Source: Minisyncoccota bacterium (GTDB taxonomy: Bacteria > Patescibacteriota > Minisyncoccia > Phycocordibacterales > PALSA-1337). Taken from it: DNA of 64,000 nucleotides. The translations under genes were made by a program, and so were the position numbers. Shown one piece after another: positions 8,457-11,450 of the stretch (its first letter is position 1; each line of letters starts with the position of its first letter). A model generated the notes under the pieces. The model saw only the letters and a list, made by a program, of their open reading frames with translations, had not been told where the DNA came from and did not search any database. The stretch covers positions 286,335 to 350,334 of the forward strand of contig JBAYFZ010000001.1 of the NCBI GenBank assembly GCA_041666915.1, read 5' to 3'.

Positions 8457-11450
8457 TTAGGCAACAACTATGTTTACGAGCTTATTTGGGACTACAATAA
8501 CTTTACGAATCTCCTTCCCTTCCAGCCACTTCTTAACTTCTGGAACTTCTTTGGCTAGTCTTTCTATATCTTCTTTACTTGTATCGGTCGGAGCTGTGAA
8601 TGAACCGCGAATCTTCCCACTAACCTGAACCATGATAGTAACCTCATTTTCCACCACCTTTTTGGGGTCATATACGGGCCATGGTGAGACGTGTATTGAT
8701 TTCTTGTTACCAAGTAAGGACCATAGTTCTTCAGTAAAATGTGGAGCAAATGGTGCGAGCAACTGGAGTATAGTTTCGTACTGTTTGCGACTAATAGAAA
8801 CAGATTTTTCCAATTCGTTTATGGCGATCATAAGAGCACTCACAGCTGTATTGAAACGCATTGCTTCAATATCGTCAGTGATCTTCTTTATAGTTTTATG
8901 GATAATCGCATCCACGTCTGCGCACTCTTTGGGCTGTGCCAGTTTCCCCTTCGTATCAACCTTTTCTCGAAGTTTCCAAACACGTTCAATGAATCTCCTA
9001 GTACCAACTATACTAGATGTACTCCAAGCAATCTGTTGATCAAAAGGACCCATAAACATCTCATAAAGTCTGAGGGAATCGGCTCCGTAATTTCCAACTA
9101 TTTCATCAGGATTGATAACATTTCCAAAACGTTTGGACATTTTTCTACCATCTTCCCCCATGATAAGACCGACATGTTGAAGTTTCAAAAATGGTTCTAT
9201 ATTGGAAACCACGCCGATATCATACAAAAATTTATGCCAAAAGCGAGCATAAATAAGATGTCGAGTAGCATGTTCAGCTCCACCTACATACACATCAACT
9301 GGTGACCAATACTTTTCCTTTTTTGGGTCAACGAGAACTTTGTTATTTTCTGGATCTTCATATCTCAAATAATACCAAGAGGAACCCGCCCATTGTGGCA
9401 TAGTATTGGTCTCTCTTTTGGCTGAACCTTTGCAGACTGGACACTTTACATTTACCCATTTTGAAATAGTAGCGAGTGGAGACTCTCCTGTTCCTGTAGG
9501 TTCATAAGATTTGACTCTTGGCAAAATGACAGGAAGATCTTTTTCTGGTACAGGAACAATGCCTTTTCCTTCAGGATTTATAAGAGCACAATTTTCGCAG
9601 CGAATGACTGGTATTGGTTCACCCCAATAACGTTGGCGAGAGAATACCCAATCTCGTAATTTGAATTTTGTAACCCACTGTCCACCAACCGATTCTGTTA
9701 TTTCTTTCTTAACTGATCCGGAAGATTTACCGTCAAATTTGCCGGAATTGATAAGTTTTCCATCTCCAGTAAAACAATTGGAGTTGGAGATATAAGCATT
9801 CCACATCAATTCAAAAGCAGAAAGATTCAACCAAGTCTTCATATCACTTCTTTTTATCCAAACTGTTTTATGGTTGACAACTTCTTCTTCTTTTACTATT
9901 GATTTTTCCTCATCCAATAATCTAAAAAGTACGCCTTGCCCAAAAGCATACCTATTAACATCCTTATGAGCAGCAAAGAAATGATTATGTTGTTCCATAC
10001 CTAAATCTTTTACATACTCAATATGAATGTATCCTGTTTCTTCTTTTATTTCACGAGCAGCAGCATCTTTATATGATTCACCATCATCAACTCCTCCAAT
10101 TATCCCCGAATGCCAATTAAACTTCTCCCAATCCAAACACAAAAACCTATCATTTTTCTCATCTAATAAAAGAGCGTAAATCGTTTTTCTCTTAACGGTT
10201 TCTTTATCTGGTCTAACATGATCTTTTCCTTCGCTATTAGTAGCGTAAGGTGCAATAACTTGTTTTATCTGTAACCCATACTTCTTTGCAAAAGCAAAAT
10301 CCCTCTCATCATGTGCTGGTACTGCCATGACAGCTCCTGTACCATATTCAGCCAAAACATAATCCGCTATCCAAACAGGAACCTCTTCATTGTTGACAGG
10401 ATTGACTGCTTTGACACCTTTCAACTCAACACCAGTCTTTTCTTTACCAGCATCCGTACGTTCAATATCAGTCTGTTTCTTGGTTTTATTTATATAATCC
10501 TCTACTTCTTGACGATTCTCAATATTTTTCAAAAATTCTGTCACTAACTTATGCTCTGGTGCCAAAACAACATAAGTCACACCAAATAATGTGTCTGGAC
10601 GAGTTGTATATACGTCTATTGTATCGTCATTTTTTATATTTGATTCTTGATTTTTAATTTTGAACTTTATCTCTGCTCCTTCACTTCTTCCTATCCAATT
10701 TCTCTGTAAGATCTTTATTGATTCCGGCCAATCAAGAAGTGGTATATCAAGATTTTTCTTAGCATCCAAATCATTGAGCAATCTCTCTGCGTAATCAGTA
10801 ATACGTAAAACCCACTGCCTCATAGGCTTCTTCTCCACCAACGTACCACAACGTTCACAGTGACCATCTTCTACATCTTCATTTGCCAAACCAGTTTTAC
10901 AAGAAGGACACCAATTGATAGGTTCAAACGATTCATAAGCCAAACCCTTTTTTAACAATTGCAAAAATATCCACTGAGTCCACTTATAATATTTTGGATC
11001 AGTAGTATTAACTTCACGTGACCAATCGTAATCAAAACCCATTATTTCCAATTGTTTTTTGTACCTAGCTACATTCTTTTTAACAGAATCCGCTGGATTG
11101 GTTTTTGTTTTCAAAGCATAATTCTCTGCCGGTAAACCAAAAGCATCAAATCCCATTGGATGAAGGATAGAATATCCAGCCATTCTCTTGTAACGAGAAA
11201 TGATATCGGTAGCTATATAACCTTTTGGATGACCAACATGGAGACCTTCACCAGATGGATATGGGAACATATCTAGCACATAATATTTCGGTTTCTTATT
11301 ATCTTCTTTAGATCTAAAAACCTTGGAACTCTCCCACTTCTTTTGCCACTTTTTCTCTATCTTAGCAGAATCGTAAACCGAAACTTTCGCAGTCACCTTC
11401 TTTGCAACCTTTACGGCTGTCTTTTTGGTTTTTTGGCTAGTCTTCTTCAT
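8457..11450 (-). CDS. leuS: leucyl-tRNA synthetase with an inserted Nudix-hydrolase-like domain
   Basis: 997 aa; HVGHPKG (HIGH), TTRPDTLFG editing motif, KMSKR, [17 protein letters not shown]; Nudix box [23 protein letters not shown] at aa ~452-474. Confidence 0.95.
   Translation of the reverse strand: [997 protein letters not shown]
9816..10193 (-). other. Nudix (MutT-like) domain inserted in the CP1/editing region of LeuRS
   Basis: perfect Nudix box G-x5-E-x7-REUxEExGU plus flanking beta-strand pattern. Confidence 0.75.

Follow-up and report, generated by a model that had tools for sequence, protein, structure and literature searches.

Within a 64,000-nucleotide stretch of DNA from a Minisyncoccota bacterium (contig JBAYFZ010000001.1, positions 286,335 to 350,334; the whole stretch is called the window below, and coordinates are its own), the leuS gene (8457..11450, stop codon included, minus strand) encodes a bacterial-type leucyl-tRNA synthetase (LeuRS) of 997 residues in which a genuine, complete Nudix domain is nested in the CP1 editing domain. 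The anatomy and fold of this insert, the conservation of its catalytic residues, its recurrence (at two LeuRS sites and in prolyl-tRNA synthetase, ProRS) and its dispensability are established here by computation; its enzymatic activity, independent of CP1, is predicted. The reading we prefer, with a probability of roughly 40%, is that the protein is a working synthetase bearing a nested, independent, tethered Nudix hydrolase whose substrates would most likely be dinucleotides of the diadenosine tetraphosphate or triphosphate (Ap4A/Ap3A) type.

A Nudix domain in the CP1 hairpin of LeuRS

The identity of the host enzyme is given by its open reading frame (ORF), by a whole-protein match to the NCBIfam profile TIGR00396 (leuS_bact) at 1029.1 bits against a curated cut-off of 548.4, and by a match to Thermus thermophilus LeuRS (1h3n) at E 1.5e-214 (HMMER). 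Conservation of its signatures was read from a 121-row alignment of the window protein and its 120 closest homologues. The HIGH signature of the aminoacylation site (HVGH, residues 71-74, 11229..11240, minus) has H71, G73 and H74 each invariant in the 120 of 120 rows with a residue at the column, and in the KMSKS signature (KMSKR, residues 770-774, 9129..9143, minus) K, M and K are found in 121 of 121 rows and the serine (S772) in 116. The editing domain is matched by Pfam PF13603 at 219 bits, and its part N-terminal to the insert (residues 250-400, 10251..10703, minus) contains both the T-rich motif TTRPDT (residues 282-287, 10590-10607, minus) and PAHDERD with the editing Asp (residues 378-384, 10299-10319, minus); in every one of the 120-121 rows that have a residue at the column these are unchanged, the sole exception being one T to S exchange at T282. 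As all four signatures are present and invariant or nearly so, the host LeuRS looks fully functional, with its aminoacylation and editing sites intact.

In domain order, HIGH and KMSKS signatures, and a CP1 with T-rich motif and editing Asp, the window protein is like the canonical bacterial enzymes (T. thermophilus 1H3N/2BYT, Escherichia coli 3ZGZ/4AQ7), but it differs in having 160 residues where T. thermophilus has 14 (between its residues 363 and 378), and in the leucine-specific domain. The latter, about 58 residues before KMSKS in T. thermophilus and also present in E. coli, is absent from the window LeuRS, in which residues 765-770 only, about five residues (9129-9160), align with T. 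thermophilus 579-637. An insert-free relative of 819 residues (P0116 in our numbering of proteins) may also be without this domain, as its length suggests.

The inserted segment, delimited by the gap against T. thermophilus LeuRS and P0116, comprises residues 401-560 (9771..10250, minus) and forms a Nudix domain that is complete, down to an N-terminal strand and C-terminal helices of its own. Window residue 400 pairs with T. thermophilus 363 and residue 561 with 378 (HMMER alignment, 1h3n), leaving 160 residues in the place of 14, and P0116 has about 18 residues at this point. The original prediction, made from the letters of the DNA, had located a Nudix domain in LeuRS at 9816-10193, which is correct and corresponds to residues 420-545 on the minus strand; its figure of about 40 residues for an ordinary LeuRS here was somewhat high, which leaves the point unaffected. 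The excised segment scores 45.2 bits (E 1.2e-11) against Pfam NUDIX (PF00293) over residues 421-537 (9840..10190, minus), and the whole protein 41 bits, well above the gathering cut-off of 21.1. The Nudix box [23 protein letters not shown] (residues 452-474, 10029..10097, minus, located by a regular-expression match), which carries the catalytic E467, E470 and E471, fits G-x5-E-x7-REUxEExGU exactly, just as had been claimed for it.

The same segment divides the match to the editing domain. Residues 250-407 cover positions 1-148 of the 185 in PF13603, and the domain resumes C-terminal to the insert with [14 protein letters not shown] (about residues 561-600, 9651..9770, end approximate, minus), recognised from T. 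thermophilus 378 onward and from a second PF13603 stretch. Because the Nudix segment interrupts the PF13603 model, the insert must lie inside CP1. Its insertion point follows the strand IKQVI and precedes KLINSG, 17 residues downstream of the editing Asp, D384, and the Nudix domain is placed at the tip of a β-hairpin loop of CP1.

An AlphaFold2 model of residues 396-564 has a mean predicted local distance difference test score (pLDDT) of 91.4 and a predicted template modelling score (pTM) of 0.84. In the full-length model (pLDDT 83.8, pTM 0.75) the insert region reaches 85-94, equal to the synthetase core. The insert adopts the α/β/α sandwich fold of the Nudix superfamily, and in length and end-to-end colinearity it matches free-standing Nudix proteins (161 residues), of which P0002 and P0003 share 39-41% identity with it across 94% of its length. 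Its GC content is 33.5%, against 38.6% for the host gene (25% against 31% at third codon positions). With 160 codons this difference is not large enough to speak for a recent acquisition. A PHROGs scan matched nothing beyond generic phage Nudix families (E 1e-7 or worse) and so gave no hint that the domain came from a phage.

Distribution and conservation of the Nudix subfamily

The 120 best LeuRS matches in the full-protein search are from metagenome-assembled genomes named Paceibacterota, Parcubacteria, Taylorbacteria or Patescibacteria, and nearly all have PF00293. Aligned to P0116, 105 of them carry a Nudix insert of about 150 residues at the same site as the window protein (site 3), about a tenth (11 or 12) have inserts at other sites only, and four have no insert anywhere. 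Within this lineage a Nudix-bearing LeuRS is the norm, not a curiosity; the earlier opinion that such a domain is not a standard LeuRS feature is right for bacterial LeuRS in general and wrong for these closest homologues. The idea that the insert is very rare, which came from five matches in a word-indexed search with the insert only, was overturned by the full-length and exhaustive representative searches. When one genome per GTDB species was scanned with the subfamily alignment as query, at least 234 loci were found to encode the subfamily, and of the best 80 of these, 69 form part of a bacterial-type LeuRS gene and 11 stand alone.

Insertion sites in LeuRS were defined relative to P0116, the minimal relative. 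Site 1, before CP1 (...LNDLD/LDWP...), accepts one or two Nudix domains, and site 3 the Nudix domain as in the window LeuRS. Unrelated hydrolases occupy the others among the relatives: Ser_hydrolase (PF06821, an α/β hydrolase domain) is found at two alternative positions, site 2 in early CP1 and site 4 (CENCA/GIVPV), and HAD_2 at site 5, a zinc knuckle (KCPVCKG/AKRE). The largest LeuRS, P0013, has 1558 residues with three Nudix domains and a serine hydrolase, and the 120 homologues display 16 architectures in a mosaic pattern of gain and loss. A rough neighbour-joining tree of the LeuRS core places forms with no insert, or with inserts at site 1 only, among the site-3 forms, and there are sister pairs, for example P0019 and P0069, that differ only by the site-3 Nudix domain. 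For these reasons the site-3 domain looks ancestral to this LeuRS group and repeatedly lost, and, to judge from such pairs, it is dispensable for LeuRS function.

By its pattern of conserved positions, R...GG.E.GE...RE..EETGY...[FY][FY]...K..NR...W, the insert is assigned to a small, previously unnamed Nudix subfamily. Among 1.84 billion clusters at 50% identity it is represented 355 times at E <= 1e-3 and 178 times at E <= 1e-10. The best 148 representatives include 101 LeuRS or LeuRS fragments (BLAST), and at least five of the other 47 are fragments of a LeuRS editing domain (Pfam). We aligned 347 copies of the domain to one hidden Markov model (HMM), namely 180 from LeuRS site 3, 84 from LeuRS site 1, five from ProRS, 28 stand-alone and 50 others. 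Glutamates E467, E470 and E471 are kept in 179, 177 and 180 of the 180 site-3 copies, in 84, 81 and 84 of the 84 site-1 copies, and in all five ProRS copies at each position, and so the original prediction, which would have been refuted by a segment failing against Nudix profiles or by catalytic glutamates not kept in insert-bearing orthologues, withstands both tests. Average identity to the window LeuRS is 36% in the insert and 71% in the LeuRS core. Because the glutamates are retained while the rest of the insert drifts, the Nudix catalytic residues appear to be under selection, the pattern expected of an active enzyme domain.

Beyond the box, the near-invariant residues are R421, an aromatic pair 17 and 18 residues downstream of the box (+17/+18), K496-x2-N499-R500, L511 and W531. 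The K-x2-N-R motif (9951..9965, minus), which is specific to the subfamily and was recognised by its conservation in the aligned copies (K 336/347, N 319/347, R 317/347), is probably substrate-binding. Just before it stands the aromatic pair, F491 and F492 in the window protein. Position +17 is F or Y in 326 of the 347 copies (F 220, Y 106) and +18 in 325 (F 163, Y 162). A Tyr about 17 residues downstream of the Nudix box is said to have been put forward by Dunn and colleagues in 1999 as the signature of diadenosine polyphosphate (ApnA) hydrolases, and the signature of ADP-ribose pyrophosphatases is a Pro at +16, which is present in none of the 347 copies.

Copies from LeuRS site 3, LeuRS site 1, ProRS and stand-alone genes are all about 32-35% identical between groups (identity matrix of the 347 copies), and as these values are alike they neither order the insertions nor name a donor. 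Two proteins, P0208 (379 residues) and P0250 (467 residues), consist of two tandem copies of the subfamily domain with no synthetase part; the domain therefore duplicates outside LeuRS too.

The subfamily is also found in a synthetase of the other class. P0153 (643 residues) is a ProRS of the archaeal/eukaryotic type (TIGR00408, 586 bits, cut-off 437) that carries the domain between its anticodon-binding and C-terminal domains, and this copy is 40% identical to the window insert (E 7e-27) and scores 134 bits on the site-3 HMM. Four further ProRS (P0274-P0277) share the insert, the five insert-bearing class II enzymes being 641-674 residues long, while their closest relatives, of about 485 residues and named Nanoarchaeota or Woesearchaeota, are without it. 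We take the same Nudix subfamily to have been inserted independently in class II ProRS of DPANN archaea. At one of two ProRS-Nudix loci, L082 (the other is L083), the flanking genes are a second small Nudix gene and a MazG-like gene.

Bacterial-type LeuRS with the Nudix insert is itself encoded on six contigs labelled archaeon or Woesearchaeota (L012, L013, L015, L018, L051 and L081). On L012, a 985-kb contig with LeuRS at 3942-7007, a gene for the archaeal transcription factor TFIIB/TFB lies 2.3 kb downstream. This proximity suggests that the chimeric gene crossed between bacteria of the Candidate Phyla Radiation (CPR) and DPANN archaea, rather than that the contig was mis-binned.

Putative substrates and alternative roles of the insert

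How might such a domain serve a synthetase? In the reading that we prefer, a whole and presumably catalytically competent Nudix pyrophosphohydrolase domain has entered the hairpin-loop tip of CP1 in an intact LeuRS; it belongs to a subfamily whose members also occur as separate proteins and have more than once become part of aminoacyl-tRNA synthetases. It would work as an independent Mg2+-dependent hydrolase tethered to the synthetase, outside the function of the editing pocket. The same domain is found at unrelated positions and as a free-standing protein, and close LeuRS relatives differ only in having it or not, which speaks for such independence. The substrates would be 5'-5' polyphosphate-bridged dinucleotides of the Ap4A/Ap3A type, which synthetases form as side products from the aminoacyl-adenylate, and the Nudix domain would split them back to usable mononucleotides (ATP and AMP). 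That the domain has been fused recurrently to two unrelated synthetases argues more strongly than any other observation for a synthetase-related substrate.

The dinucleotide substrate is proposed from the nearest profile and structure matches, which are ApnA hydrolases, RppH and decapping enzymes, together with the source of ApnA, which arise chiefly as by-products of aminoacyl-tRNA synthetases and are removed by Nudix Ap4A hydrolases (PMC4734340). In the PDB the best matches of the subfamily profile are lupin Ap4A hydrolase (1f3y, E 3e-8), the decapping effector AvrM14, aligned over positions 52-160 with the K..R motif included, and Aquifex aeolicus Ap4A hydrolase; Dcp2 was also matched. ApnA hydrolases, DIPP and decapping enzymes are over-represented among those structural neighbours that have been characterised. 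The aromatic pair at +17/+18, kept in about 94% of copies, and the missing Pro at +16 may point in the same direction. The comparison structures for ApnA hydrolases (lupin 1F3Y, A. aeolicus 3I7U, T. thermophilus Ndx1 1VC8 and Mycobacterium tuberculosis Rv2985 9CXX), and E. coli RppH, have the same fold as the insert and a complete Nudix box; an aromatic residue 17-18 residues after it would be a further likeness. The subfamily of the insert differs from them in being only 14-20% identical, in scoring below the cut-off of every curated family, in having its own R421 and K-x2-N-R, and in being nested, not free.

Several observations weigh against this assignment. A Nudix fold says little about what the enzyme acts on. 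All matches to characterised Nudix enzymes are weak: identities are 14-21%, and scores of 24-31 bits compare with curated cut-offs above 100. The nearest NCBIfam models, those for RppH (NF001936/NF001937/NF001938), fall short of their cut-offs with the insert at 24.3 bits against 116 and with P0002 at 30.7 against 118. The best structural neighbour, 2azw, a MutT/nudix protein of Enterococcus faecalis deposited as a structural-genomics entry, is without known function and, at 16% identity to the insert, adds nothing in this respect. NudI (an NTPase), MutT1 and ADP-ribose pyrophosphatases are structural neighbours at similar scores. The neighbourhoods of 12 stand-alone Nudix genes held no conserved neighbour and so gave no clue to a pathway. 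The repeated loss of the insert would mean that its coupling to LeuRS function is not essential, and the unrelated hydrolases (Ser_hydrolase and HAD) in other loops of relatives' LeuRS fit a generic story of a permissive scaffold nearly as well, or at least as well.

The most serious competitor draws on these same points. It holds that the insert is a general house-cleaning or salvage hydrolase (acting on NTP/dNTP, damaged nucleotides, ADP-ribose or similar) which has no chemical link to aminoacylation and, in genomes as tiny as these, is lodged in permissive surface loops of an essential, constitutively expressed protein, an arrangement that would guarantee its expression and save regulatory sequence. 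The foreign hydrolases at three other LeuRS loops, the 16 architectures with their mosaic of gain and loss, the sister pairs with and without the insert, the stand-alone copies lacking a conserved neighbourhood and the NudI, MutT1 and ADP-ribose pyrophosphatase neighbours are all in its favour. It leaves unexplained, however, why so narrow a subfamily (355 representatives in 1.84 billion clusters) should be found overwhelmingly in synthetases, and why it should have been inserted independently into an archaeal class II ProRS. A random choice of host should reach other abundant proteins, yet among the long annotated matches there is no non-synthetase host, the two tandem-Nudix proteins, which have no other domain, excepted. 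We regard hitch-hiking of this kind as possible, though doubtful.

An RNA 5'-end hydrolase of the RppH or Dcp2 kind, which would remove pyrophosphate or a nucleotide cap (ppp-, NAD-, Np4-) and be recruited through the synthetase to tRNA or translating mRNA, is improbable. RNA pyrophosphohydrolase models are indeed the best NCBIfam matches of the insert and of its stand-alone homologues, and the profile matches to AvrM14 (52-160, with the K..R motif) and to Dcp2 point the same way, but scores of 24-31 bits are far under the curated cut-offs of 116-139, and since RppH-type and ApnA hydrolase activities overlap, RppH-like matches do not discriminate between them. Moreover, mature tRNA bears a 5' monophosphate, and the two insertion sites in LeuRS and that in ProRS have no common relation to the tRNA 5' end.

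The original prediction had offered two kinds of substrate, dinucleoside polyphosphates such as Ap4A and mis-activated aminoacyl-adenylates, and the second is the less likely. That the Nudix domain helps in proofreading, by hydrolysing mis-activated adenylates (pre-transfer editing) or by taking part in CP1 editing, would suit its location inside the editing domain only 17 residues after the essential D384. The bond that Nudix enzymes cleave, however, is a pyrophosphate linkage, which an aminoacyl-adenylate, being an acyl-phosphate, does not contain. The canonical editing motifs, all of them intact, need no replacement, the same domain occurs outside CP1 (site 1), in ProRS and as a free protein, and the insert is lost without loss of LeuRS, all of which makes a proofreading role very improbable.

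Equally improbable is a non-catalytic structural or RNA-binding module, given catalytic glutamates that hardly vary in a domain that otherwise drifts, or an artefact (an assembly chimera, a frameshifted neighbouring gene or an intein), given a continuous reading frame, more than 100 orthologues with the insert at the same site, a 100%-identical fragment (P0014) from an independent JGI contig, and a full-length model that folds with the insert in place. An assembly artefact is excluded by the first three of these, and an intein or mobile element was rejected as the insert contains no intein motifs or splice junctions and is instead a conserved in-frame enzyme domain.

Genomic surroundings, precedents and significance

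In the window leuS is flanked on one side by a RhuM-family gene (PF13310, E 4e-106) and on the other by a gene for a 350-residue protein with sigma-70 region 4 and HARE-HTH domains (Pfam; the flanking ORFs are 11515-12537 and 7259-8311, both minus). A 425-residue ORF at 5745-7022 has no Pfam match. Almost every long ORF of the window is on the minus strand, and the GC content overall is 41%. Further afield Pfam identifies a carbamoyltransferase at 170-1873 and UvrA at 59946-62576. The sole tRNA genes are two divergent tRNA-Ala genes, at 55161-55234 (minus) and 55740-55813 (plus), with GGC and UGC. A 674-residue ORF (40862-42886, minus) matches the phage SU10 portal protein family (PF23899, E 4e-14), and several large neighbouring ORFs (28175-36669) have no Pfam match; this region may be a prophage or phage-derived.

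Partial precedents exist for a synthetase, or an enzyme like it, with an accessory hydrolase or transferase. NadM-Nudix is a bifunctional NMN adenylyltransferase/ADP-ribose pyrophosphatase, in which the hydrolase acts on an adenine dinucleotide-type product of the same pathway. Like LeuRS-Nudix it unites an adenylate-forming enzyme of the HIGH superfamily with a Nudix hydrolase in one polypeptide, but its fusion is end-to-end and not nested, and both the Nudix subfamily and the host enzyme are different. Fusions of HIGH nucleotidyltransferases with Nudix domains are mentioned in PMC7824862. Isoleucyl-tRNA synthetase with an N-acetyltransferase, curated as an 'exception' model in NCBIfam (NF040702, ileS_w_GNAT), is likewise a bacterial class I synthetase with an accessory enzyme domain, and differs from LeuRS-Nudix in what that domain is and where it sits. 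For LeuRS-Nudix itself NCBIfam has no curated model.

In the literature that we searched in full text, neither LeuRS nor any other synthetase is described as having a Nudix domain. The architecture is visible in public databases as precomputed Pfam hits and, as far as can be told, is uninterpreted there. The proteins are labelled leucine--tRNA ligase, 'class I tRNA ligase family protein' or even 'alpha/beta fold hydrolase', and genome annotation thus misnames some of them.

The accretion of domains by aminoacyl-tRNA synthetases is seen for the most part as a theme of eukaryotes. In the present case a bacterial and archaeal lineage takes it to an extreme, with one, two or three Nudix domains nested in an essential synthetase, joined in relatives by serine-hydrolase and HAD domains, and the same type of Nudix domain appears to have been built independently into an unrelated class II enzyme. 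A wider proposal, which we put forward tentatively and think rather unlikely as a whole, is that ultra-small bacteria (in LeuRS, where two sites hold up to three copies) and archaea (in ProRS) may possess a dedicated synthetase-associated Nudix family that destroys or recycles the synthetases' own dinucleoside polyphosphates, whether Ap4A-type alarmones or precursors of Np4 RNA caps; with its nested Ser_hydrolase and HAD domains LeuRS would then be a multi-enzyme platform linking translation to nucleotide salvage.

Even if the synthetase serves as a scaffold and nothing else, the permissive CP1 hairpin tolerates a folded insertion of 160 residues, which is relevant to LeuRS engineering and to editing-site inhibitors. 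The bacterial-type LeuRS-Nudix gene on archaeal contigs may serve as a marker of CPR-DPANN gene flow. Should the domain clear Ap4A-type dinucleotides, as we propose, this would be the first synthetase to carry its own alarmone hydrolase, and would offer a handle on Ap4A metabolism in organisms with minimal genomes and no nucleotide synthesis.

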